From NCBI GenBank assembly GCA_000004985.1, contig GG738919.1: a stretch of 64,000 bases of DNA; one strand, written 5' to 3'. Source of the DNA: Naegleria gruberi (lineage: Eukaryota). Shown piece after piece: positions 17,244 through 51,090 of this stretch (its first letter is position 1; every line of letters begins with the position of its first letter). Both the position numbers and the translations under genes were made by a program. The notes beneath the pieces were generated by a model, which ran no database searches, was not told the origin of the DNA, and was given only the letters and a program-made list of their open reading frames with translations.

Positions 17244-18200
17244 ATGCTAAAGTGTAGACCCCATCTTTCGTCAAGCTGTAATTTATTTCATACAAATCTT
17301 GCCATTGTTAAAAAACATCAGTGGCTCAGTCACAACATTTTCAATAATAGAACCTTTGAAAAATATAAATCTACCTGCTTACTACTTCTTCCAGGAATGG
17401 ACGGAACTAGTCTTCTGTTTGAACCATTTACTCAACAAATGATGGAAAAGAGCAAACAATTCAACCATCCTTTGCACATCTATCCGATACCTTATCCTAA
17501 TCAGCCATTGATGAACTATTCAGAGTTGGAACTATATTCGAGAAGAAAAATCAAAGAAATTCTTGACAATTATCACATGGAAGAAGAAACTAATGTTGTA
17601 ATTTTGGGAGAATCATTTTCTGGACCTATTGCCACGTCCATTACATCAATGATGAATAATGAACGGGAAGGAGGAGAATTTCCGATTAGTGGTTTGATAT
17701 TATGTTGTACATTTGTGGCCAATCCTAGACCAGTACTCAGTTTTCCTTTCAGGTTCATATTTTCTTCACCCAATTCCAATAATCAAAGCTTCAAAACTAA
17801 TCTAATGGATTCTCTAATTAGAATTTTATTTCAACAGGAGTGGCTTATGAAAATCATTAGTAAGCTCATGTTCCATTCAGAAAAACAGAGGAATCTATTT
17901 CTCAGAGCTATGAAAATAACTCCTCCTGAAGTTATTGGCCTCCGATTGAGAAATGTTCTATATGTGAACAGAATTGAAGAATTGAGAAAATGCAACAATA
18001 TTCCTCTATTAATTCTGAGAGCTAGGAATGATTGGATTGTCCCCAACTCTGCTCAACAACTCTTGGAGGAGGTATTCGAAGGAAATTGTAATTGTCCTCC
18101 ACCAATTGTTGGTTCTCATTTTCTTTTACAAAACAATCCAGAAGAAACTTCAGAAGTTATTTGGAAATTCGTTCAAAATTTACCCAAGGTCAAGTCATGA
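17244..18200 (+). CDS. alpha/beta-hydrolase fold protein
   Basis: ATG start. LLLLPGMDGTSLLF resembles the oxyanion-loop region. VVILGESFSGPIA is a nucleophile-elbow-like G-x-S-x-(S)G motif. Confidence 0.5.
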   Translation: MLKCRPHLSSSCNLFHTNLAIVKKHQWLSHNIFNNRTFEKYKSTCLLLLPGMDGTSLLFEPFTQQMMEKSKQFNHPLHIYPIPYPNQPLMNYSELELYSRRKIKEILDNYHMEEETNVVILGESFSGPIATSITSMMNNEREGGEFPISGLILCCTFVANPRPVLSFPFRFIFSSPNSNNQSFKTNLMDSLIRILFQQEWLMKIISKLMFHSEKQRNLFLRAMKITPPEVIGLRLRNVLYVNRIEELRKCNNIPLLILRARNDWIVPNSAQQLLEEVFEGNCNCPPPIVGSHFLLQNNPEETSEVIWKFVQNLPKVKS

Positions 18201-32624: not shown

Positions 32625-33252
32625 GATTCTCTTCAATTCTCTCTATTCTTGTTTTTTCCGGTTGTGAAAAGTGTGACAATTTTGATTATCTGAATAAATT
32701 ATTATTACTAGTAATTCGCTATTAATTATAATAGTAGAAACCCAAAGATGAAGTATTGACAATCTTTTTGATTATTATTTGAATCCATTCTTCATCTTTG
32801 GTTGACATTGAATTTGGTTAGTTTCCAAAAACCTCTTTGTGGAAAATTAAAAAGGCAACCCAGTGTTATGATGACAAGTAAAGATGTCTTCATCAATTAA
32901 TGAAGAATTATTATTAATAATAATAATGCAATGTTATTATTCGGTTGAGAGAGGAATGTAGTGAATGAAAATTGTTTCATGATACTTTAATTTTGATTTT
33001 CCGAAGAATATCTAATATTGTTGTTGTAATTGTTAATGATGAGGAATTTAATAGCCAAAGAAGAACTATATCTTTAATATTAATAATCCAATCCAATATT
33101 CCAAATTATTCTAATGATGAAAGCTTCTTTGCTCTTTTTCTGGCTTGCAGATATTATGAGAGCATTTTTGCCATAGCAAACTTTGGTTGTAAAACGATGT
33201 AGTCAACGAATAATTAAAAAACTTGTTGAAAAAAAAATACGCAAAAGTCAAA

Positions 33253-33802
33253 ATGGTACGTACTGCAGTCACTCTCTTAAAAAATATTTACCTTCTCTTT
33301 TCTAATTAATACTTGCTTGGTATGAATTATTTACTTACTCTTGAACATATTATAGGCCACAACTAAGAAGAAGTGTAGAAAGATGAGAGGTCACGTCTCT
33401 CACGGTCACGGTCGTATCGGTAAGCACAGAAAGCACCCTGGTGGTCGTGGTATGGCTGGTGGTCAACACCATCACAGAATCTGGGTTGACAGATTCCATC
33501 CTGGTTATTTCGGTAAGATCGGTATCAGAAGATTCCACATGAATAAGAATCACTTCTTGACAAATTGTCTCAATGTTGACGAATTGTGGAAGGTTGCCGG
33601 ACAAGAAGTCTACCAACAAGCCAAGGAAGGTAAATTCGGTGGTAAGGCTGTCGTTATTGATGCTCACAAGGCTGGTTTCGACAAGATCATGGGTAGAGGT
33701 GACTTGCCAAAGATCCCAATCGTCGTCAGAGCTAGACTCTTCTCCAAGTCTGCTGAAGAAAAGATCAAGGCTATTGGTGGTGTCTGCGAACTCACTGCTT
33801 AA
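33253..33802 (+). CDS. rpl27a: 60S ribosomal protein L27a (uL15); the first exon is the ATG only
   Basis: ATG at 33253-33255 is immediately followed by a GTACGT donor. The intron is 33256..33355, 100 nt, with acceptor TATAG. Exon 2 is 33356..33802. The spliced protein is [37 protein letters not shown]..., the canonical L27a N-terminus. Confidence 0.85.
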
Positions 33803-39085: not shown

Positions 39086-39667
39086 TTATTCGCCCATATC
39101 CTTTCTGACACCTTCAGCTTGTTCTCTTTCTGCCAAATCAAATGGTCTTCCGTCCAGTTTCTTTAACGATGGTAATCTTCTCAATACTTCAATTCTCCAA
39201 TTTTCACCTGCATCCTTAGTATTCTTTTCCAATGGATTACCAGTCAGTAAAATTTCTTCCAAGTCAGGGAGATCTTTCAGTCTGTCAATTTCAGACCAAG
39301 AACTAATCTTGTTATTTCCACAATATAATACTTTGAGTTTCTTCAATTTTTCAACACCAGCTAACGATGTCAAGTTATTATAAGACAACCACAATTGTTC
39401 CAAAGTTGGTGCAACAGCGTCAAGATTTTCCAATCTCTTGATTTGATTTCTAGCCAGTGATAAAATTTCCAAAGATACCAATCCTTGCAAACCACCAATT
39501 CTGTCTATACAATTTGTTGAGAGAGCTAATCTTTTACAATTTTTCATTTGAGACACAGTAGTGTCCATCTTTTCAATTGGAGGAACCCATCCATATAATA
39601 ATACTTGTTCAGCTTCGGAAGCTTTTTGTCCACTCTTTTCTTCCCACGACTTTACAGCATCTCTCAA
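39086..39667 (-). CDS. DNAL1: axonemal outer-arm dynein light chain 1 (LC1/DNAL1, LRR protein); initiator Met not resolved
   Basis: Near-colinear match to Chlamydomonas LC1 (HGxIPPIEKMD, LALSTNxIxxIxxL, LRILSLxRNxIKxIENLDAVAxTLExLWxSYNxI, LKKLDG). The ORF begins on TTG. A candidate ATG at 39738-39740 (minus) is followed by GTAGGT, but the splice phase could not be made consistent. Confidence 0.8.
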   Translation of the reverse strand: MRDAVKSWEEKSGQKASEAEQVLLYGWVPPIEKMDTTVSQMKNCKRLALSTNCIDRIGGLQGLVSLEILSLARNQIKRLENLDAVAPTLEQLWLSYNNLTSLAGVEKLKKLKVLYCGNNKISSWSEIDRLKDLPDLEEILLTGNPLEKNTKDAGENWRIEVLRRLPSLKKLDGRPFDLAEREQAEGVRKDMGE

Positions 39668-39919
39668 AAAGAAGACCTTTTATTCCGATTATTAAAATTC
39701 AACATTTGATCAATTTATTGTTCATTTCCAAACCTACCATCCTGTTTGTATTTCCTCAGTTATTAATTATCCAAATTTACAGGCAAACCTGAATTGTATT
39801 TTTTTATTTTTAAAAACCAACTTTCCCATACAACCAAGTGATTTCCGTAGTGTACTAATTTTTGGCGCCAATCATACTATCCCTTTCCCTTTTATGAAAT
39901 ATTTTTTACTGATAATGTA

Positions 39920-40000
39920 GCAGACTTGGCCGAGTGGTTAAGGCGACAGACTTGAAATCTGTTGGGGAAACCTTCGTAGGTTCGAATCCTGCAGTCTGCG
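39920..40000 (+). tRNA. tRNA-Ser (anticodon UGA)
   Basis: Acceptor stem GCAGACT/AGTCTGC. D-arm GCCGAGTGGTTAAGGC. Anticodon loop CTTGAAA. Long variable arm. T-arm GTAGGTTCGAATCCTGC. Discriminator G. Confidence 0.9.
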
Positions 40001-40007
40001 AATGAAC

Positions 40008-40012
40008 TTTTT
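40008..40012 (+). terminator. Pol III T-run terminator after tRNA-Ser
   Basis: TTTTT eight nt downstream of the tRNA 3' end. Confidence 0.5.
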
Positions 40013-40321
40013 GATTTGAAACAAAAAAAAAGATACTTCTTGTTAAAAGGCAAGAAGATAGTGTTGTGTATAATTTTTGTGATGTGTGTTTTTTAAGCAT
40101 TTTGAAATGTTTTTGCTTGGAATCTCAATACGATTCTTTGAGCGCACCTAAAAAGCGCTTTTGAAACCGGACAATGAAAACTTGGACAAGAACTATTTAT
40201 CGCCATCAAAATGACATTTTCAAAAAAAATCAAAAGAAAGAGGTTCTCTACCCAGACTATTCGTTTATCAATATAATTCTTTGATTAGTTTGATTTCCCT
40301 AAACTTGCAACCGATACAAAC

Positions 40322-43300
40322 ATGTCTAGCCATCTATCAGATGGACACGATCACTATAATTCTGATTGCAATCAACCTTTGGAATCACATCAACAAAATC
40401 AACAACAATTAGATGATGATTCCAAACAAGACAATAATCTTCAAAAAACAACAATACCAACAACAACAACTACTGTTTTGGATCATCATTCATTATCAGA
40501 AAATCACATTGCACTATTAAATAATCATCATTCTCATCATCATCACATCATCCAAGAAGAATCATTGTATATAGATGGAGAGCAATTTGATGATGGTGAT
40601 GATTATGTGGTCAAGCAGGGTGATAGACAGTTGGTTGAGAGTGCACCTAGTAGTGTGGAGGAGATTCATGGTGGTGTTCAGGAGGAATCAATATCGTTGT
40701 TATCGAAAATGTATTGGAAAGTGAAGGATAAAATTGTGGACCTGATGTGCTATGTGATTAAAAAGAAACCACTTGGTGATGATTTTGAATTGGAGGAAAA
40801 GGAGCAAGAATTAAAAGAAGAAACTCAACAGGAAGTGGAACCAGTTGAAAAATCCAATTTTGCCTCAGAAGACGAAACTGAACGAAAGTTTGAAAAAATT
40901 TATATTAACAATCGAGAAGAAAATAGAAAATGCAGAAAACCCTTTCCCAAAAACTCTGTCACAACCACCAAATATTCAATACTGACCTTTATTCCAAAAA
41001 ATCTATTCGAACAATTCAGAAAGGCAATCAATGTTTATTTACTATTAACTGTTATTGCAGTTTTAATTCCAGATCTATCACCCATGTTTCCTCCAGCTGC
41101 TGTATTACCCATTACAATCATTGTCCTTGTCCAGATGGCCAAAGATGGATTCGAGGATTTTCAAAGATATCGTCAGGATCGAAAGGCAAACAATGAGAAA
41201 TGTCGAGTGATTAGAGATGGAATCTTACAGGAAATTCAAGTGAAAAATATAGAGATTGGTGATGTGGTTTCGATAAAGAAAGATGAGGTTTTCCCAGCTG
41301 ATTTGTTGTGTATACATTCGTCGAGAGAGGATGAGTTGTGTTATATTGAAACTGCAAATTTGGATGGAGAAACTAATCTAAAGAGTAGAAGACCTATTAA
41401 GGGATCTTCTAAAGTATTTCATCATGATGTTGCGGAGAATAATATTGGAGATTTTGCACAATTGAAAGGAAAGGTTCAAGTCGAGATGGCAAATAACAAT
41501 TTGGATGTGTTTGAGGGCATGCTGAAAATGCAAACTCAAGTGATGGGATATGGTGAATTAATCTCAATTAATGAACCACTCACAATGGAAAATCTATTGC
41601 TTAGAGGATGCACTCTGAGAAATACTCAACACATATTTGGAATTGCAATCTATCTCGGCAAGCACACAAAGATTTTTATGAATACGAAGGAGAATAAGGT
41701 GAAGAGAAATGAATTGTGGGTAACTCTGAATAAGATTTTGGTATTCTTGGTTTTATTTCAACAAGTGTTGTGTGCAATAGTTGCTGGACTGCAGGGAAAC
41801 TTTCATGACACATTCGAAAGCGGTGCATTCTATTTGGCTCCTCTTGATGATTCACCAGCTTCGTTTGTTTCTGTCATGTCAACTTGGGTCACTACGTTTA
41901 TATTGTTAAATTACATTGTCAATGAGACAATTATTATTGGATTTGAAGCTGTCAAGACATTCCAATCGTGGGATATTCAATCAGATGCTGAAATGAGATT
42001 TGGTGATATTAAAACTCAGGTCAGAACAGCAAATTTGAATCAAGCACTTTCATCACTTGATTTTATCTTCTCTGACAAGACTGGAACACTAACACAGAAT
42101 GAAATGAAGTATTCAGATTCATGGACAGATGGCATGTATTATTCAGAGAAAAGCAATCCTGGCTCAATGAAAGAGAAACTAGTGCAATATCATCAATTTG
42201 GTAAGATTGACATTGAAAATCAACCTCATCATCATCAACAAACATCTGTACATGGAGCAGAACATCATGCTAGCTGCATTAGAGAGTTTTTAACATGTCT
42301 CACCTTGAATAACAGTGTCATGCCAGAGAAGGATTTACAAAACCCTGAAAGAATTAATTACAATGGACCTTCCTCAGATGAAATTGCACTTTTGGAGGCT
42401 GCTACCAATAATGGATTCAAATTAATTCAGAGAACCAACGAAGGATTAGTAATTGATGAAATGGGAGAAACTAGATTTTATGAAATTATTGCAACCTTTC
42501 CATTTACATCTGATAGAAAAAGAATGACAGTTCTTGTGAAAACTCAAGAAGGAAGATATATTGCCTATGTGAAAGGTGCAGATAACGTCATGCTGAAGAG
42601 ATGTAGAGCTAGAAAGGAATATGTTCATGAATTGAAATCTGCTCTTCTCAATTTTTCAGTTCAGGGCTTGAGAACATTGGTAATTGGTAGGAGGGAGCTC
42701 TCAATGAGTGAATTTGAAACTTGGTTCGATGGTTATAATAAGGCCTCCATGTCAAGTAAGAATAGAGGAAAGATGATTGCTCAGAGTGCAAGTGATCTGG
42801 AAATTGATTTGGAGCTGGTTGGTTGTACAGCCATTGAAGATAAATTACAAGATGATGTGGCCAAGTCAATTGATTATCTTTCCAGAGCTGGTTTGAAGAT
42901 TTGGGTCTTGACAGGTGATAAGACAGAGACAGCAATTAATATTGCCTACTCAACCAATGTATTGGTGAAAGACAAGACCATTGAAATCAGAATCAGAGAT
43001 GCCAACACACATCAACAAGCCAAAAAGAAACTGAAGGAAGCACTAGAATTCTTACAAAACAATTCGAATAAGGGATTTGAATTTGGTCTCATTATCGACT
43101 CCAAATCTCTAGAGTTTATTCTCGACAAGTATGAGAAACGTTTCATTGAACTAGCTCGATATGTCCACTGTGCTGTCTGCTGTCGTTTAAAACCACTCCA
43201 AAAGTCCAGCATTGTAAAACTAATTGAAAGTAAGCTTCACAAGAAGGCCCTCTCCATTGGTGATGGTGTCAATGATGTGGCAATGATCCAAGCAGCATCC

Positions 43301-44185
43301 ATCGGTGTTGGAATTCAAGGAAAGGAAGGATCTCAAGCTTCTCGTTCCTCTGACTTTTCAATTCCTCGTTTTAAAAACCTGGTAAGATTATTGGCCGTTC
43401 ATGGAAGAAATTGCAGTGTGAGAAATGCCGACTTTTTACATTTGAGTTTCTACAAGAATTTTATATTGCTCCTTCCTCAATTTTTCAATATTTTCTATTG
43501 TGGATATTCTGGAACTTTAATATTCGATTCTTGGGAATTAATTGTCTATATTGGAATTTACTTCTTTTTTCAACCGATTGCATTTGGATCGTGTGAAAAG
43601 GATTTACCTGAGGAGGTGATTTTAGAGCATCCAGAACTCTATGATTCACTCAAAAAATCTGGAAATTTATTCAATCTCAGAACATTAATCATGTGGGGAA
43701 TTGCTGCCATCTATCATGCACTTGTCATTTTCTTTGGAATTATTCTGAGTGTGGATGGAGATTTTATGGAGAATGGACCTACTGACCTATATCATTTTGG
43801 TAAAATTATCATGACATGTATGGTTTGTGTGGTCACTTTGATATACATTTTGGAGATTAAAACATTGACAGTTCCAGTTTTAATCTTAATGCCACTTGGT
43901 TTTTTATTTTACTTTGCATTCAATGCTTGTTATTCTCCAATTGCAGATGAATTGGGAGATCCTGAGAGTTTATACATTTATTATGAAACTTTTGTGAGTG
44001 TACAAGCTACCTTGACTACGATTCTAGTAGTTGTAGTTGCAATTTTACCGAATATCATTTGGAAAGCTGCCAAGATTACCTTTTTCCCATCAGAGTCTCA
44101 ACGACTTTTATTGGAATATCTTGAAAAGAAGGAACACCAAACTCAAGAGGAAGCTAATAAGGGAAAGCAACCAAACTCAAAGTAG
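40322..44185 (+). CDS. P4-type ATPase (phospholipid flippase)
   Basis: 1287-aa ORF with an ATG start. P-type motifs DKTGTLTQNEM and GDGVNDVAMIQAASIGVGI. P4-characteristic N-terminal region PKNLFEQFRKAINVYLL. Ten TM helices. His-rich N-terminus. Confidence 0.9.
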   Translation: MSSHLSDGHDHYNSDCNQPLESHQQNQQQLDDDSKQDNNLQKTTIPTTTTTVLDHHSLSENHIALLNNHHSHHHHIIQEESLYIDGEQFDDGDDYVVKQGDRQLVESAPSSVEEIHGGVQEESISLLSKMYWKVKDKIVDLMCYVIKKKPLGDDFELEEKEQELKEETQQEVEPVEKSNFASEDETERKFEKIYINNREENRKCRKPFPKNSVTTTKYSILTFIPKNLFEQFRKAINVYLLLTVIAVLIPDLSPMFPPAAVLPITIIVLVQMAKDGFEDFQRYRQDRKANNEKCRVIRDGILQEIQVKNIEIGDVVSIKKDEVFPADLLCIHSSREDELCYIETANLDGETNLKSRRPIKGSSKVFHHDVAENNIGDFAQLKGKVQVEMANNNLDVFEGMLKMQTQVMGYGELISINEPLTMENLLLRGCTLRNTQHIFGIAIYLGKHTKIFMNTKENKVKRNELWVTLNKILVFLVLFQQVLCAIVAGLQGNFHDTFESGAFYLAPLDDSPASFVSVMSTWVTTFILLNYIVNETIIIGFEAVKTFQSWDIQSDAEMRFGDIKTQVRTANLNQALSSLDFIFSDKTGTLTQNEMKYSDSWTDGMYYSEKSNPGSMKEKLVQYHQFGKIDIENQPHHHQQTSVHGAEHHASCIREFLTCLTLNNSVMPEKDLQNPERINYNGPSSDEIALLEAATNNGFKLIQRTNEGLVIDEMGETRFYEIIATFPFTSDRKRMTVLVKTQEGRYIAYVKGADNVMLKRCRARKEYVHELKSALLNFSVQGLRTLVIGRRELSMSEFETWFDGYNKASMSSKNRGKMIAQSASDLEIDLELVGCTAIEDKLQDDVAKSIDYLSRAGLKIWVLTGDKTETAINIAYSTNVLVKDKTIEIRIRDANTHQQAKKKLKEALEFLQNNSNKGFEFGLIIDSKSLEFILDKYEKRFIELARYVHCAVCCRLKPLQKSSIVKLIESKLHKKALSIGDGVNDVAMIQAASIGVGIQGKEGSQASRSSDFSIPRFKNLVRLLAVHGRNCSVRNADFLHLSFYKNFILLLPQFFNIFYCGYSGTLIFDSWELIVYIGIYFFFQPIAFGSCEKDLPEEVILEHPELYDSLKKSGNLFNLRTLIMWGIAAIYHALVIFFGIILSVDGDFMENGPTDLYHFGKIIMTCMVCVVTLIYILEIKTLTVPVLILMPLGFLFYFAFNACYSPIADELGDPESLYIYYETFVSVQATLTTILVVVVAILPNIIWKAAKITFFPSESQRLLLEYLEKKEHQTQEEANKGKQPNSK

Positions 44186-44307
44186 TACTGAGGAATATTT
44201 TGAATGAATGATATTAAGGACAATTAAAGTTTTGGTTTACGATTTTCAAAGAGAAAGAAATTTCCAATGTCGACTGTTGGGTCGTTGGTCTAGAGGAATG
44301 CAATTTT

Positions 44308-44422
44308 AGAAAAGGTAAAATGATTCTCCCATGCCGGGAATTGAACCCGGACCTCCTGGGTGAAAGCCAGGTATCCTAGCCATTGGACTACACGGGAATC
44401 TTATTCATAATGAAAATATTCC
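44308..44422. repeat. left arm of ~115-bp inverted repeat containing tRNA-Glu plus conserved flanks
   Basis: The reverse complement of this arm matches 47864..47979 nearly base for base. The 72-nt tRNA is identical in both arms. About 20 nt of 3' flank and about 25 nt of 5' flank match with one or two mismatches. Confidence 0.8.
44326..44397 (-). tRNA. tRNA-Glu (anticodon UUC)
   Basis: Minus-strand sequence TCCCGTGTAGTCCAATGGCTAGGATACCTGGCTTTCACCCAGGAGGTCCGGGTTCAATTCCCGGCATGGGAG. Anticodon loop CTTTCAC. Identical to the copy at 47889..47960. Confidence 0.9.
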
Positions 44423-44543
44423 CTTAATGAATTTTAAATAACATGATCCTGTATCTTATTTCCTTTAGCATCAAAAGCTGTTTCTAATTGAAATTCAACT
44501 TACAACATCGAGTACACTATTATTTTGGTGTAATGGTAGTATT

Positions 44544-47500
44544 TTATTTGAGTTTTGAATAAATTTTTTCCAAATACTGTGTTATTTCTCTGAAGGAAGG
44601 CCTCTTACTTGGAATGGAATTCCAACATTGCTTCATCAATTCCACATAATCACTACACACGTTACAAACAGTTTCATGATCTAGAGAATTTTTCTTCTCA
44701 AATGGTTCAATAAACTCTCTCAACCACACCTCCAATTCTTCATTGTTATTCCAGGGAATTTTAGGACGTTCACCCCTCACCACCATCACTGGAACGGATA
44801 ATGCAAGTGAATCTTGATGTGGTGATTGAGAAAATTTGTGAATTTTAGGAGAATTGGAAAAAAATGGTTTCTCCTCAAAGAATAGTTCATACATAATGAT
44901 ACTGTAACTGTACACATCGAGTGCATTTCCAATTTCTTGTCCACTTCCAATTAATTCTGGAGCCATATATAGAATGGTACCTAAATTCATTGTCATTGAG
45001 AAACTTCCACTATTTGAGGTCAACTTGGACAAACCAAAATCACAAATTTTAGGTTTCAAATTGGCGTCCAGCAAAACATTTCCACATTTAAGATCTCTGT
45101 GAATTAAAGATAATGGCTTCAATGAGTGTAAATAGTCCATTCCTTTGGATACTCCCGATAAAATTTCAATCTTTTCCTTTAAATTCAACTTTTTTCGTCC
45201 TGATTTAGAGTTGGCAATTGCAGTTTCCAAACTCCCATTTTCCAAATATTCCACAACCATATATCTTGTATTTGAGCTGATAGATATTCCAAATAATCGA
45301 ACAATAGCTGGATGTCTAAGACTATTCAATAAACTTGCTTCATGCTCAAATTCATCCTCAAGTAATTCATCATCTGTTTTCAAGCTCTTCACAGCAACAT
45401 TAATACCATTCCATTGAGCTAAGTATACACTACCATGACTTCCTTCACCAATTCTCTTGCTTATTTCAATATCTTCAATTGGAATTAACAAATTATTGGA
45501 AGATTTCGTCTGAATATTTGTCAAGAGCGGGGTTGAAATCTCTCCAAATACAAACTTCTTGTCAATAATCTTTTTAGCAATTTGGGATTCACGTTTATCC
45601 TTTTTGTGGAGTCTAAATAATCTTTTTCCAATCTGAGTAGTCAAAAAAGCTCCAAATCCCAATAAGATTAACAGCAATATCACTCCAAATATTGTTGAAA
45701 CAGCAATGGCTGAATAATTCTTGAATTTACAAACTCTACTTGTTGGTAAACCTTCATATCCAAAATCGAATGGGCACTTCTCCACATTAATTCCAATTTC
45801 AAAGTTGTAGAGAAATTCTGATAACGAAACTTGAATATTAAAATTGCTTTCTCCTTCACACCATTCAAATGATAAATTCATAATGGTATTGTTGGCTTCC
45901 TTCTCGTGCATGATAATAATCGAAGATTTTGAATTAATGGAAGAAACAACAGGTAATGCTTGGAGTGATGTAAGAGTATTGTTGAACTCATCAATTATTT
46001 GAATAATTTCTAATGTTATTTGCTGACCTGGATAGAGAGATAGTTTTGGAATTGTATTGCTGGTGGAAGAATAAATGCTTTTAGAATTTGACGTTTTCCA
46101 CAACACTTGTTGGATGTGACTAGAACCACACTGTCCAGATAATGCACCATCAGATGAAACTACACAACTTTTCAAAAATCGATTATCCTGTGGAAAATAT
46201 ATGAAATTCCCTGAATAAGTAGCATCGTTTCCAATATTACTTGTTTGAAAAACTCTAACTTCCCCATAACAAGCACCTCCCTTAACAGCCAAGTTGTACT
46301 CAAAATTAGATCCTGAAAAGTAGAAAAAGCTGTTTGAGGAATAAATGGCACCACCATTTCCACAATCCTTAACACTCAAACATCCTTCAAAGTTTCCAAT
46401 AGCTTGATTGGAAATGAATTTTGAAAATCTATCTGTAATAAAAGACCTTTCAGAATAAATAGCACCTCCATTAGATGCCTTATTATTGATAAATAGACAA
46501 TTAGCAGTTGTAAGTTTTGCTTCATTCAAATAGAGCGCACCTCCTTGATTAGACCAATTGTCTCTAAACGTGCATTCAATGATCCTAATACGTTCACTAT
46601 CAAGTTTCTGTTTTCCATTATTATTAATTGACAGGGCATTTCTATTTCTTTCAAATATACAGCTTTCAATTGATAAATCGTTGACTTGTTGGAATGAGAG
46701 AGGTTCAACATTATCTGAAAAGTTCATAGATTCAAATTTGGCTTGAATATTTCCAATAACTTGAATACTTGAATTATTAGAAAGTGAAATTGCACTCACT
46801 AATATAGATTCGCTTCCAATCCACACATTATTAGTTTGTTCCATTTTACATTCTTTCATAATTATAGCCCTCACAGACATGATAAATAGTGTGGAACCTT
46901 CGAATTGATTTGAAGTAAAAATTATTTGCTCTGATGAGGTGATGGCTATAACGCTTTGTTTGAAAATGCTATCATTCATTCCAAAATCAATAATATTATC
47001 ATTATACACTTTAGATTTTCCTTGAATATTCGAATTTACAATTAATCCATTCTCAATTCTAATCTTTGCTGTTGAAAGTGAGCAATTCAATAATGTTGAA
47101 TTGTGAATAAGCGCTGGATATAAATAACTCCAAAGTGAACATTTATACATTGTCGATTTTTGAATAATTAGTAAATCTGCATAATAGTTAAGCTCTACAT
47201 TTTCCAAAATACAGGAATCGATCATCCAAAGTGGAATTTTAGACGAACTTGCACTATCAATTTTCAAATTAGATAATTTCACATTTGATAATATAAATTG
47301 ATCACATTGTTTCGATAGATAACTAATACTTTCAAGAACATCCCACTCACTTTGTGTAATATAATAGTAGTCCTTTCGGTTCCCAATAATTAATGAATTA
47401 GTTCCATTCTGAATATCTTCCAATAAATAGGACGAAATTGTTAAATTAATTAATTTTCTATTATTATTAATAAATGTTGGCTTTGTCAAATTACTCATCA

Positions 47501-47771
47501 AATAAATTTTAATATTCAATTCATCATCGGAAGAAGTTAAATTATTTGAAAGATAATTTCGAATTTGTTGTAATGAAGAACATGGACTGGAGGGAGATAG
47601 ACAAGGAAGATTCGACTCATTGTTATTTGTATTTTCATTATAGAAGAAGGTTAATTGGAGAGAAAGAGTGAAGGGAAGAATGGATAATAGAAAAAGAAAG
47701 GCAAGATTTGGATTCATTTTTTTAATATTGAAAAAGATGAAGATCCGATAACAATACAGCCCCATCGACAT
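44544..47771 (-). CDS. receptor protein kinase (TKL-type): signal peptide, large ectodomain with parallel beta-helix/PMP-like GGAIY repeats, one TM, cytoplasmic kinase domain
   Basis: 1075-aa single ORF with an ATG start. Ectodomain repeats NGGAIYSERSF, GNGGAIYSSNSF, KGGACYGE. TM helix IAVSTIFGVILLLILLGFGAFLTT. Kinase motifs GEGSHGSVYLAQW, VAVKSLK, HRDLKCGNVLLD, ICDFGLSKL, ILYMAPE. Confidence 0.8.
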   Translation of the reverse strand: MSMGLYCYRIFIFFNIKKMNPNLAFLFLLSILPFTLSLQLTFFYNENTNNNESNLPCLSPSSPCSSLQQIRNYLSNNLTSSDDELNIKIYLMSNLTKPTFINNNRKLINLTISSYLLEDIQNGTNSLIIGNRKDYYYITQSEWDVLESISYLSKQCDQFILSNVKLSNLKIDSASSSKIPLWMIDSCILENVELNYYADLLIIQKSTMYKCSLWSYLYPALIHNSTLLNCSLSTAKIRIENGLIVNSNIQGKSKVYNDNIIDFGMNDSIFKQSVIAITSSEQIIFTSNQFEGSTLFIMSVRAIIMKECKMEQTNNVWIGSESILVSAISLSNNSSIQVIGNIQAKFESMNFSDNVEPLSFQQVNDLSIESCIFERNRNALSINNNGKQKLDSERIRIIECTFRDNWSNQGGALYLNEAKLTTANCLFINNKASNGGAIYSERSFITDRFSKFISNQAIGNFEGCLSVKDCGNGGAIYSSNSFFYFSGSNFEYNLAVKGGACYGEVRVFQTSNIGNDATYSGNFIYFPQDNRFLKSCVVSSDGALSGQCGSSHIQQVLWKTSNSKSIYSSTSNTIPKLSLYPGQQITLEIIQIIDEFNNTLTSLQALPVVSSINSKSSIIIMHEKEANNTIMNLSFEWCEGESNFNIQVSLSEFLYNFEIGINVEKCPFDFGYEGLPTSRVCKFKNYSAIAVSTIFGVILLLILLGFGAFLTTQIGKRLFRLHKKDKRESQIAKKIIDKKFVFGEISTPLLTNIQTKSSNNLLIPIEDIEISKRIGEGSHGSVYLAQWNGINVAVKSLKTDDELLEDEFEHEASLLNSLRHPAIVRLFGISISSNTRYMVVEYLENGSLETAIANSKSGRKKLNLKEKIEILSGVSKGMDYLHSLKPLSLIHRDLKCGNVLLDANLKPKICDFGLSKLTSNSGSFSMTMNLGTILYMAPELIGSGQEIGNALDVYSYSIIMYELFFEEKPFFSNSPKIHKFSQSPHQDSLALSVPVMVVRGERPKIPWNNNEELEVWLREFIEPFEKKNSLDHETVCNVCSDYVELMKQCWNSIPSKRPSFREITQYLEKIYSKLK

Positions 47772-47863
47772 AAGGTAATCAATTTTCCTTGAATATGGTG
47801 AGTGAATTTAAATTCTAGGGTCAATATTCTTGGCTTTGTCATAATGTATGTTGATTCATGGAA

Positions 47864-47979
47864 GGAATATTTTCATAATGAACAAGATTCCCGTGTAGTC
47901 CAATGGCTAGGATACCTGGCTTTCACCCAGGAGGTCCGGGTTCAATTCCCGGCATGGGAGAATCATTTTTACCTTTTCC
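47864..47979. repeat. right arm of ~115-bp inverted repeat (tRNA-Glu plus flanks)
   Basis: See the left arm at 44308..44422. The two arms are in inverted orientation and bracket the receptor-kinase gene. Confidence 0.8.
47889..47960 (+). tRNA. tRNA-Glu (anticodon UUC), second copy
   Basis: Identical 72-nt sequence to the minus-strand copy. Followed by TTTTT at 47966-47970. Confidence 0.9.
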
Positions 47980-48157
47980 AACTAATAATTCTTTCTTTTC
48001 ATAAACTAACTTTAATTGTCCTTATAATATCATTATTGCTTTTTTGATTCAAAAAGATTTTAAAAATTAGTTCTAGGAGAGAACTCTTTGTTCCTGCATA
48101 CACTCGAACTCTAAAAATTACTACTTTTTCATTGCAATAATAAATTCAAAAAGAAAA

Positions 48158-49417
48158 ATGCTTCCAAAATCCAAGTACAGTCCCAACAATTTTCGAAAAT
48201 ATCAAACCACACCCAAGAAACGTAAAACTTCATCCGATTCCAATCTGGCAAATGAAATTGTCGATTTAACTCTCGATGAAAATCATATCATTTCCATTGA
48301 TGATGATGAGGAGGAGCAAATTCATCACTCCGAGAGAGTAAAATGTATTTTAATTGATCATCATCATAACGAGTTTAATGATGAAGAAGAATTTGAACTG
48401 ATGAGTTTATTGATTGGTAAATTGAGAGGAAAGTTTATTCGGTCAGTTTCTCTGGAATTTGATTCGTGCTATCAGTTGAGTGTTAAAGCAATGAAGAAAC
48501 CATTTGATGTAAAGATTTCGTATAATCACAAATTGGTTGTTGTCTCTGATTATAATGCAAATTCATTGTTTCTTTTTGATTTGATAACAAAGAGATATTT
48601 GACGAAACTATATATTAAGAATCCACATTATATTGCCATAGAATCAAATGTGGATTATCGTGAAGGAACTGAAAATGATGCAATTATTGTAACAAGTGCT
48701 AGTAACCATGTTTACAAAATTGACATTAAATTGAGTGTGAAAAATGGAAAGAGTTCAGAAATTTGGAAAGTTGGTGGAACGAAACATTTCAATTCCCCAT
48801 GTGGAGTAGTTGTCTATCATAACAAGGCAATGGATAGAAGAGAATCCCATGAAAATTCATATTTCAGATTAAATCAACAAGAAAGAGATGAAAATCTTGT
48901 AATGGTTTGTGATTTTAATAATAATAGAATTCAAGTGTTGGGTTCAAAGTATGGAAATTTGATTTCTTCAATTACATTGATTCCTGGAATTGGATTACAA
49001 ACTCCGTGGATGATTGATGTGAATTCGTATGGAGATTTGGTTCTTTCTGAATTTTCGAATAGAGTTCAATTGATTAGATATGTTTCGAATGTGTACGATT
49101 ATATGGATATTGCAGAAAGGGAAGAGATGGATTCAGACGGATGGGTTTCTCTTCATCAATTCTCATCTGAATCAAATTCAAGAAATGTCAAGACCAAATG
49201 TTGTGGAATTGTAGTTGACAAGACCACTCAGAATGTAATAATATGTGATAGAGATTCGAATATCATTAGAATATTCAATGTGAATGGAATATTTATCAAG
49301 GAAGTGAGAGGAGTCATTAATAATCCGAGAGGAATCTGCATTGATGAAAGAAGTGGAGAATTACTCATTGTGGATTCGGAAAGAAAATGTGTTAAGGTAT
49401 TTGGACATGTTAATTGA
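48158..49417 (+). CDS. NHL-repeat (six-bladed beta-propeller) protein with basic/acidic N-terminal region
   Basis: ATG start. N-terminus has KKRK and an acidic stretch. C-terminal repeats of NHL type (DFNNNRIQVLG, SEFSNRVQLIR, DRDSNIIRIFNVNG, VDSERKCVKVFG). Confidence 0.6.
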   Translation: MLPKSKYSPNNFRKYQTTPKKRKTSSDSNLANEIVDLTLDENHIISIDDDEEEQIHHSERVKCILIDHHHNEFNDEEEFELMSLLIGKLRGKFIRSVSLEFDSCYQLSVKAMKKPFDVKISYNHKLVVVSDYNANSLFLFDLITKRYLTKLYIKNPHYIAIESNVDYREGTENDAIIVTSASNHVYKIDIKLSVKNGKSSEIWKVGGTKHFNSPCGVVVYHNKAMDRRESHENSYFRLNQQERDENLVMVCDFNNNRIQVLGSKYGNLISSITLIPGIGLQTPWMIDVNSYGDLVLSEFSNRVQLIRYVSNVYDYMDIAEREEMDSDGWVSLHQFSSESNSRNVKTKCCGIVVDKTTQNVIICDRDSNIIRIFNVNGIFIKEVRGVINNPRGICIDERSGELLIVDSERKCVKVFGHVN

Positions 49418-49711
49418 TTAAATTTGTGTAATTTTAATTTCAAATATTAAACCATTCAAAATTAAAAACTATCGGAATCTAATTGCAAATAGTAAGGAAA
49501 GGAATTATCTTATCGGAATCTGAAGATTCAAATTCAAGTCAACCAAGGAAAGGAATTATCATTAAAGAAGGAAATGATCATAAAAGAAAAATAGACAATT
49601 CTCTCAACATTCCTTATGAGGAGATTGAAGTGATTGAGTATTAATTCCATCAAGGATTGACCTTATTATTCTCTAATATATTTTAGAAACAAAACACTCA
49701 ACAAGAACAAG

Positions 49712-50176
49712 ATGAAACGTTTGCTTACTAGCGTCTTAATAATTGCCTGCCTTTCGGTACTGATGATGGACATGACACTATGCTTCTTCCAACAACCATT
49801 CAATAACATGTTCAACAATAATTTCCAATTTCCTGGAGCTGCAACAACTGGTTTTCCAAATATGTGGATGAATAACAATTATGCATGGAACAATCCAGCG
49901 GCAACTTATGGAGCAGCAGGTTGGAACAATTACAATCCAGCAACAACCTACGGAACAGGTTTTGGCTACAATACTGGATTTAATGGTGCAGCAGCTTTCC
50001 CATACGGAAGCAATAACAACTTTATCAAGAGTGGAGCCATTCCATCGTCAGGTTATGGTGGTCATCAAGTCATCACAACACCAACAAGAGAAGGTTATGA
50101 TGTAGAGTATCAATTCCCAGGAGGAAGAGCTAAAAAGTACTATTCTTCTCAAAGCTTTGTGCAACAAGTACTTTAA
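49712..50176 (+). CDS. small secreted Asn/Gly/Tyr/Trp-rich low-complexity protein
   Basis: ATG start. Signal-peptide-like MKRLLTSVLIIACLSVLM. Body rich in N, G, Y, W, A, F (NNYAWNNPAATYGAAGWNNYNP...). Confidence 0.5.
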   Translation: MKRLLTSVLIIACLSVLMMDMTLCFFQQPFNNMFNNNFQFPGAATTGFPNMWMNNNYAWNNPAATYGAAGWNNYNPATTYGTGFGYNTGFNGAAAFPYGSNNNFIKSGAIPSSGYGGHQVITTPTREGYDVEYQFPGGRAKKYYSSQSFVQQVL

Positions 50177-50212: not shown

Positions 50213-50485
50213 TTACTTAGTCTTGGTGAAACCAATGAGAGCAGCGTTTTCTCTGAAGCATTGTCTGCAAATGTTAAGACCGTACTTTCTGATCATACCC
50301 TTTCTGTTACCGCAAACCTTGCATCTTCTAGCACCCTTTGAGTTATTCTTTGGGTGAGTGAACCAGATATTTTCGTAGCCCACTAGATATTGATGGTAAA
50401 GAACAAGTTGTTATGTTGGTTGAATCATGATGGTGAATTGTTTTGTCAGAGGTAAATTACCAAGTTGTTTAAAATGATACGTACT
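50213..50485 (-). CDS. rps29: 40S ribosomal protein S29 (uS14); start codon split by a phase-1 intron
   Basis: Exon 2 (50213..50382) encodes [55 protein letters not shown]. The only way to obtain a start codon is A (50485, the last nt of exon 1) plus TG (50382-50381). This uses a GTACGT donor at 50484-50479 and a CTAG acceptor, giving a 102-nt intron at 50383..50484. Product is 56 aa, matching S29 length. Confidence 0.8.
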
Positions 50486-51090
50486 GTTTATGTGGAGTAG
50501 TTAAGAATTTTTTTTTCAACAAAATTTTAGAGAGTTAACCAAGATGCCAATATTTTACAACGAAAGTTTTAAGCAGAGAATCACCAGCTGATGAAAAAAA
50601 TTGTCTTATTGTTGTAGAGCAATCATGAGCCTTATCATCATCAAAAGGATCATTAACTTCTCTCCAATGATGAAGATATTCGTTGGGAGATTTATTATGA
50701 AAGCATATTATTAATAATTCTAATTTTCGGAGAATATCATCATTATTTTGAATGGTTATTCTCAAGAATTAGAAATATCTTCATAATGAAGAACGAACAA
50801 TAATTCCTACTAATTATTATTTAACCTAATTGTGTAGTTTTACATTGACTAAGAACCCTCTACTATTTTACTTCTCTTGTTGACGCGTTAATATAATTTT
50901 GTTGGAACAAAGGCTTTGAATATTATAAACTCATCAATTCTATATAGGAACCAACCTTCAGGAACCGTTATCTTATAGTAAAAACATCCAACTACGGATT
51001 AGAGCTAAACACTAATGTCCAATTGTCGAGATATAATGATAACCATTGATAGCACGTCGTCTCACTCAAATAAATTACGCAAATAACATC

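Follow-up and report, generated by a model that had tools for sequence, protein, structure and literature searches.

Probable assembly of a start codon by splicing in the ribosomal protein S29 gene of Naegleria gruberi

Introduction

How does Naegleria gruberi begin the synthesis of ribosomal protein S29 if the DNA directly before residue 2 of the protein reads GTG instead of ATG? The question arises from a locus on the minus strand of a 64,000-nt stretch of genomic DNA (hereafter, the window; G+C content 34%). For N. gruberi, the data on the S29 start comprise one assembly, including base G50383, and this 64-kb portion of the genome. The original prediction was that an intron interrupts the S29 (uS14) initiation codon, such that A and TG are united in the mRNA, and that L27a (uL15), also encoded in the window, carries its intron directly after its ATG. 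Start-proximal introns were accordingly proposed to be a recurring pattern of ribosomal protein genes.

Start-codon introns are indeed over-represented in ribosomal protein genes, where they lie in phase 0 between codons 1 and 2 (Nielsen & Wernersson 2006, PMC1626468). Spironucleus Rps4 provides a further start-codon intron case (PMC6679479). Our analysis leads us to conclude that the S29 AUG of N. gruberi is very probably built by splicing A50485 to TG across a 102-nt intron, and that this event takes place in an old first intron that relatives share.

An S29 Gene without a Genomic ATG

The features discussed here are collected in Table 1. The coordinates first proposed for S29 proved exact when checked on the sequence. 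Slashes mark exon–intron boundaries throughout.

Table 1. Positions in the window of the S29 and L27a gene features and of their promoter motifs
Feature	Position	Strand	Description
L27a (uL15) start codon, end of exon 1	33253..33255	+	ATG
L27a intron	33256..33355	+	100 nt, phase 0 directly after ATG, GTACGT...TATAG
L27a exon 2	33356..33802	+	codons 2-149 and stop
S29 exon 2	50213..50382	-	TG of start codon, codons 2-56, TAA; from translation, Pfam PF00253 and PDB S29 chains
S29 intron, GT-AG (predicted)	50383..50484	-	102 nt, phase 1 inside codon 1, GTACGT...ATCTAG; donor homologous to introns of three relatives
Candidate branch site CTCTGAC	50445..50451	-	fits YNYTRAY; putative branch A 50446, 63 nt before 3' splice site
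S29 leader exon 1 (predicted 5' end)	50485..50508	-	up to about 24 nt, assuming that transcription begins past the A-run motif
Promoter-proximal motif TTGTTGAAAAAAAA, S29	50509..50522	-	exact 14-mer
Motif TTGTTGAAAAAAAA, L27a	33223..33236	+	upstream of L27a
Upstream motif pair GTTGTAAAA ... GGTTAAC, S29	50534..50561	-	single match in window against 0.01 expected

Read on the minus strand, 5' to 3', the locus runs ...TTGTTGAAAAAAAAATTCTTAACTACTCCACATAAACA/GTACGTATCATTTT...CTCTGAC...ACCATCAATATCTAG/TGGGCTACGAAAATATCTGG..., and exon 2 (50382 to 50213) consists of TG GGC TAC ... ACT AAG TAA, that is, 55 codons after TG and then the stop. That exon 2 begins with TG and specifies residues 2–56 of S29, as had been claimed, is borne out by its translation and by two independent comparisons. 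Specifically, the 56-residue product matches Pfam family PF00253 (Ribosomal_S14) at 52.6 bits (cutoff 27; E 3.6e-14), and its residues 1–54 align with residues 1–54 of the 56-residue 40S S29 chains of yeast and others (PDB, E 1e-22). Because the alignment to these chains is collinear, the S29 family has no room for an N-terminal extension. Both CxxC pairs of the zinc knuckle are present (C21-x2-C24 and C39-x2-C42), and they are conserved in relatives.

The contiguous DNA offers no start codon for this protein. In the S29 frame, the genomic triplet at codon 1 is GTG, followed by codons for GYENIWF, and a TAA lies 12 codons upstream of codon 1 with no ATG between; the absence of an in-frame upstream ATG was thus correctly noted. 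The sole ATG within the predicted intron, at 50428, is in frame and reaches the upstream TAA after 5 codons. Excising the 102 nt from 50484 to 50383 joins A50485 to TG and gives the 56-residue S29 product. The predicted spliced junction is CCACATAAACA/TGGGCTACG, which can also be written CCACATAAACA/TGGGCTACGAAAAT.

By every test available (intact open reading frame, codon bias, conserved promoter motifs), the locus appears to be a live gene under purifying selection. The codon bias of exon 2 is 0.80, against a window median of 0.35, a value of the type found in highly expressed genes, and S29 and L27a show the top codon bias in the window. One additional high value came from reading a Ser/Thr-rich open reading frame out of frame and is an artefact, and a third ribosomal protein gene in the window was rejected. 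Relative to its Naegleria fowleri counterpart, exon 2 is 89% identical in nucleotides and 91% in amino acids, with 8 synonymous and 5 non-synonymous codon changes.

These properties bear on the idea that the locus is a decaying copy, or that an assembly error (A read as G) altered its start, with a functional S29 gene carrying an intact ATG elsewhere in the N. gruberi genome. The idea draws on the fact that 64 kb of the genome were seen, on the intact ATG in all three relatives described below, and on the lack of an annotated S29 for comparison in the protein collection. Yet the reading frame is intact, the 8:5 ratio of synonymous to non-synonymous codons is typical of constraint, the codon bias is the highest in the window, and the promoter motifs and the donor are conserved. 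Moreover, a single S29 was found near L27a in the relatives, and the locus occupies the orthologous position; an A at 50383 would leave the conserved donor without any acceptor before the coding sequence. We consider decay or error highly unlikely and, judging from its sequence, take the locus to be the N. gruberi gene for cytosolic ribosomal protein S29, apparently single-copy.

The Predicted Intron in the Start Codon

The predicted intron has the features of a U2-type GT-AG intron: a GTACGT donor, a YNYTRAY-like site, an acceptor that is the first AG past the donor, and an orthologous intron in relatives. Its arrangement exceeds chance. Specifically, the interior contains no AG at all, no GT other than the one at 50484 follows an A in the 275 nt leading up to the acceptor, and the hexamer GTACGT occurs 4 times in the 64-kb window, with 2 of these occurrences being the S29 and L27a donors. 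AG-free windows of 94 nt make up 1.2% of the 64-kb sequence and 9% of shuffles of the intron's own G-poor composition. The leader exon contains no ATG; its last base, A50485, is the A of the predicted AUG, and it aligns with the leader exons of the relatives. The original prediction that removal of 50383..50484 creates A+TG and a 56-residue protein gains support from the donor, which aligns in three relatives, from the first-AG acceptor, and from the intron in the N. fowleri gene model.

Three observations count against this reading. The donor deviates from the canonical AG/GTAAGT at positions -1 (A) and +4 (C). The predicted distance from branch to acceptor is 63 nt in N. gruberi S29 compared with about 20 nt in N. 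fowleri; in the comparable place to CTCTGAC, N. fowleri has ACTGAC, and the metagenomic contig L128, introduced below, has CCTTGAC. Finally, the exact 56-residue S29 protein was not found among the 15 billion proteins of a collection that draws in part on transcriptome assemblies.

Other identities for this segment were tried and rejected. A U12-type intron is not indicated, as its donor sequence, GTATCC or ATATCC, is absent. The segment has neither significant structure (fold z=+0.89) nor an Rfam match that would suggest a structured RNA or snoRNA; Rfam matches within the window are limited to three tRNAs. A bacterial promoter scan is irrelevant in a eukaryote. Noise in a survey of introns bridging open reading frames prevented a reliable splice consensus for N. 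gruberi from being drawn up. Candidate introns of non-ribosomal genes in the window have GTAAGT, GTATGT, or GTGAGT donors and look shorter, at about 40–60 nt.

The notion is that S29 expression proceeds as follows. Transcription would begin shortly after the conserved promoter block of the ribosomal protein genes (GTTGTAAA, GGTTRAC, TTGTTGAAAAAAAA), giving a transcript whose leader exon, about 24 nt or less, would end in ...CAUAAACA. The spliceosome would then excise the 102-nt U2-type intron using the donor A/GUACGU, the probable branch sequence CUCUGAC, and the first downstream AG as acceptor (CUAG/UG). Exon ligation would make AAAC-AUG-GGC, such that the S29 AUG is present in spliced mRNA only, where its context is good, with A at -3 and G at +4. 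Unspliced RNA would be unable to yield S29, with GUG at the start position and an in-frame UAA 12 codons upstream. If so, translation of S29 strictly requires splicing. For N. gruberi, we infer the splicing at these sites, the branch point, and the transcription start.

The GTG situated exactly at codon 1 raises a different prospect, namely that the intron lies in the 5'UTR only, or is retained, and that ribosomes initiate S29 at the genomic GUG, a near-cognate codon, making the A of exon 1 irrelevant. The homologous intron of the relatives, which is purely 5'UTR, lends this prospect some credit. However, there is no AG between the donor and CTAG/TG, so no acceptor that leaves GUG in the mRNA is available to the S29 donor. 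Retention would place a 5-codon AUG-initiated uORF and the in-frame UAA just upstream of the GUG. Splicing, by contrast, regenerates in N. gruberi the AAC-AUG-G context, which in the relatives is present at the DNA level. An abundant ribosomal protein initiated at GUG would be unusual. Near-cognate initiation is therefore, to our minds, very improbable, and we return to the reading in which splicing builds the AUG.

The Same Locus in Related Organisms

Orthologous S29 DNA was reached via synteny with L27a, through members of the uL15 cluster. The comparison covers N. gruberi, N. fowleri (L088), Naegleria lovaniensis (L089), and L128, a 7.1-kb metagenomic contig of a Naegleria-like organism. 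The gene order marks the S29 loci of the four taxa as positional orthologues: in every taxon, a homologue of the convergent open reading frame 49712-50176 adjoins S29, and L27a, pyrophosphatase, MFS, and LRR genes precede it.

In all three relatives, the S29 start codon is intact in the DNA. The N. fowleri gene lies on the minus strand (L088 17538..17371; 91% amino-acid identity), and the sequence upstream of it reads CACACTCAAG/GTTTGT...ACTGAC...CCAACAG/TGAAACAATAACAACATGGGC. The corresponding sequences are CACACCAAG/GTTAGT...CATCAG/TGAAACAAAGACAACATGGGC in N. lovaniensis (L089 17122-17289, minus strand) and CCACAAACT/GTATGT...CCTTGAC...CAAATAG/TAACAACATGGGC in L128. A four-way alignment places the S29 donor in the same column in all four taxa, and the region where the intron starts is conserved, with GTNNGTRTCATTTT in three of them and GTATGTACCAG in L128. 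The intron of the relatives is wholly 5'UTR, with the ATG 15 nt (N. fowleri), 15 nt (N. lovaniensis), or 7 nt (L128) after the acceptor, and the protein begins MGY, without an N-terminal extension, in each of the three.

The N. fowleri intron can be recognized in a deposited gene model. Excising the 60-nt intron at L088 17613..17554 from the deposited span 17714..17448 gives the protein KAF0975536.1 exactly, and the N. fowleri annotation was made with BRAKER1 and RNA-seq (PMC6831594). Thus, the homologous intron is already part of a transcript-informed model. The protein of that model is another matter: the S29 locus (L088 17371-17714, minus strand) is annotated as FDP41_005530/KAF0975536.1, a 68-residue "hypothetical/secreted protein," which is a spurious out-of-frame open reading frame that reaches from the promoter across the 5'UTR intron and on into S29. 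The N. lovaniensis gene table (L089) lists no gene at the S29 locus. In the protein collection searched, S29 is absent for N. gruberi and N. lovaniensis, and its 5.8 billion clusters contain no Naegleria S29.

With the relatives in hand, one further arrangement can be weighed, in which an exon farther upstream supplies a full ATG plus extra codons, its last base completes the NTG, and the product is an N-terminally extended S29. Several A/GT and other GT sites between 50657 and 51012 could serve as donors for such an exon. They are poor donors, however, located on the upstream side of the conserved promoter block, and an intron starting at one of them would contain 4 to 27 AGs before the acceptor. 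In solved ribosomes, eukaryotic S29 has 56 residues, with Met1 directly before residue 2, and the proteins of the relatives begin MGY, unextended. An upstream coding exon is thus exceedingly improbable, and the short untranslated leader exon ending in A50485 remains our candidate for exon 1.

Beyond the genus, the S29 start codon of the outgroup Acrasis kona is intact. The deposited A. kona S29 of 72 residues (JAOPGA020000309.1, L083 2001-2266, plus strand) appears wrong at its C-terminus; respliced as GFQK/GTAAAT...TTATAG/TTCAGGTAA, it gives the canonical 56 residues ending in FR. A metagenome scan for close S29 relatives returned 80 loci, the best at 63% identity and none from Naegleria. Among these 80, none has a clear AG/TG split and 36 have an intact ATG at codon 1. 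Several further searches were uninformative. The homologue search for the divergent upstream neighbor, a 734-residue protein, returned the N. gruberi protein itself only; synteny via the nearby P4-ATPase led to four Naegleria and Willaertia paralogue loci, none with S29; exact look-ups of the window open reading frames 48158-49417 and 49712-50176 found no record; and a degenerate DNA pattern for GYENIWF gave unrelated Acidobacteria matches or none in GTDB genomes and IMG/VR.

Some features of the material are recorded here for their own sake. Contig L128 is MLSBCLC_10064155 of JGI metagenome 3300002220, and a second contig, L129, is ERZ27315067; both derive from an uncultured Naegleria-like organism. 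The L128/L129 organism shares about 86-88% identity in S29 and L27a coding DNA with N. gruberi and N. fowleri alike, and the gene order is common to them. A separate sample, ERR1078381, contains DNA with 1 mismatch to N. gruberi over 271 aligned bases. In the interval ~39700-49700, between the LRR gene (39086-39667) and the small open reading frame beside S29, N. gruberi has about 10 kb that are absent from the relatives here. This segment contains tRNA-Ser(TGA) at 39920, a P4-ATPase gene, a receptor-like kinase gene, and an NHL-repeat gene, and the kinase gene is flanked by opposed tRNA-Glu(TTC) genes (44325-44398, minus strand; 47888-47961, plus strand).

L27a and a Promoter Block Shared with S29

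The spliced 149-residue L27a product is identical to the deposited N. gruberi protein EFC35835.1, and the L27a matches assign the window to N. gruberi strain NEG-M. The match of deposited 149-residue proteins to the spliced product validates the L27a intron, and the phase-0 position is occupied also in N. fowleri, N. lovaniensis, and the L128 contig (4/4 taxa). Placement of this intron directly after the ATG was therefore rightly proposed. The two N. gruberi L27a records differ: the model on this scaffold, XP_002670063.1, to which the window's L27a open reading frame is identical, has 139 residues, starts at an internal Met, and is without the first 10 residues, while EFC35835.1, on an 11.6-kb contig, has the correct 149 residues. 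Donor hexamers of S29 and L27a tend to agree by species more than by gene: GTACGT is found twice in N. gruberi and GTTTGT twice in N. fowleri, N. lovaniensis has one GTTTGT and one GTTAGT, and L128 has one GTACGT and one GTATGT.

The two genes also have promoter motifs in common. The exact 14-mer TTGTTGAAAAAAAA occurs twice in the window, upstream of S29 and upstream of L27a, compared with 0.69 occurrences expected when up to 1 mismatch is allowed. It lies 24 nt upstream of the donor at S29 and 19 nt upstream at L27a, and it is conserved upstream of both genes in the four taxa. The motif (A/G)TTGTAAA(A/C) is conserved in 8/8 promoters (S29 and L27a, four taxa). A GTTGAC-like second box is kept in most of the eight; L128 S29 has a degenerate version (GGTTTGC), and in N. 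gruberi L27a the box is inverted (GTCAAC). The resulting ordered block, (A/G)TTGTAAA(A/C), then GTTGAC or GGTTAAC, then TTGTTGAAAAAAAA, with the first-intron donor about 19–24 nt farther on, spans 50509-50561 (minus strand) and 33185-33236 (plus strand) and is common to S29 and L27a in L088, L089, and L128. We found no description of this shared ribosomal-protein promoter block in the literature searched.

In light of these data, the recurring pattern of start-codon introns stands in part. Both window genes fit the pattern; what Naegleria species conserve at S29, however, is a first intron close to the promoter and not its placement at the ATG. We speculate, with considerable doubt and from two ribosomal protein genes (S29 and L27a), that Naegleria ribosomal protein genes share a cassette comprising three promoter motifs, about 20 nt of leader exon, and a 50–105-nt first intron, and that this cassette is reliable enough for N. 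gruberi to have dispensed with its genomic S29 ATG and to depend wholly on splicing for the AUG. We regard this as unlikely as it stands.

Possible Origin of the Split Start Codon

The comparison points to an old promoter-proximal first intron of S29 that is common to the four taxa and purely 5'UTR in the three relatives. Among these taxa, the split start codon is specific to N. gruberi and probably derived: the relatives and the outgroup A. kona have an intact ATG, so the N. gruberi state is most simply the derived one. The 3' ends of the intron suggest a route. L128 reads CATCAAATAG/TAACAACA/TGGGC, whereas N. gruberi reads CATCAATATCTAG/TGGGC. Perhaps an 8-nt deletion, comprising the exon-2 leader and the A of the ATG, placed the acceptor against TG in N. 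gruberi; we infer this scenario from a short AT-rich alignment, on which it depends. Because the leader exon ends in A, such a loss could be tolerated. A leader deletion explains the N. gruberi boundary as well as an acceptor shift does.

Relation to Known Introns at Start Codons

Introns that split start codons are rarer but already known, and the S29 structure is of a known kind. What S29 shares with the class of PMC1626468 is a ribosomal protein gene that is short, conserved, and highly expressed and whose first intron sits right at its beginning. The window's L27a (ATG/GT) is a textbook start-codon intron of that type; the S29 intron, unlike that class, lies in phase 1 within codon 1 (A/TG) and belongs to a rarer class that disrupts the start codon. 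In microsporidia, the L19 start codon of Nosema ceranae and Encephalitozoon cuniculi is interrupted by an intron (PMC2685015). As in S29, a short spliceosomal intron splits the initiation codon in a compact, intron-poor genome, a likeness drawn at the level of the whole codon. The microsporidian case differs in that it involves another protein and fungal relatives rather than Heterolobosea.

In Yarrowia lipolytica, 42 introns have their 5' splice site after one of the three start-codon bases (A, T, or G), and 5'UTR introns that end directly upstream of the ATG are numerous (PMC13309789). Both Yarrowia states are seen for one orthologous S29 intron when N. gruberi is set against its relatives. 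The Yarrowia sites are backed by RNA-seq and have been experimentally linked to expression level (PMC13309789), while the Naegleria S29 case is a prediction from sequence comparison. Classical intron sliding concerns coding sequence and is well supported for 1-nt shifts only (PMC3488318). The S29 intron resembles it in that one boundary is fixed and the other differs by 8–16 nt of mRNA between related species. In contrast to classical sliding, the boundary that moved passes through untranslated leader, which left the AUG as the sole element to be kept.

What is new locally is the contrast between species with a 5'UTR intron and a species with a split AUG, the annotation gap, and the layout of promoter, leader exon, and intron.

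Significance

The S29 finding leaves our knowledge of splicing and translation unchanged. Its immediate use is in annotation. A split start explains the annotation gap for a universal ribosomal protein, S29 being missing or mis-modelled in three Naegleria annotations, and a gap of this sort can bias scores of completeness and comparisons of presence and absence. Other Naegleria ribosomal protein genes can be searched for with the arrangement of promoter, leader exon, and intron as a pattern, and the same arrangement offers a handle for expression constructs in an organism with few genetic tools.

From the evolutionary side, a single orthologous intron that is 5'UTR-only in some species and splits the start codon in another bears on how start-codon introns arise. 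Should the cassette that we doubtfully propose prove real, S29 synthesis, and possibly ribosomal protein synthesis generally, would be hard-wired to splicing capacity, and the series formed by N. gruberi, L128, and N. fowleri would display rare, readable steps of an intron boundary entering a start codon.
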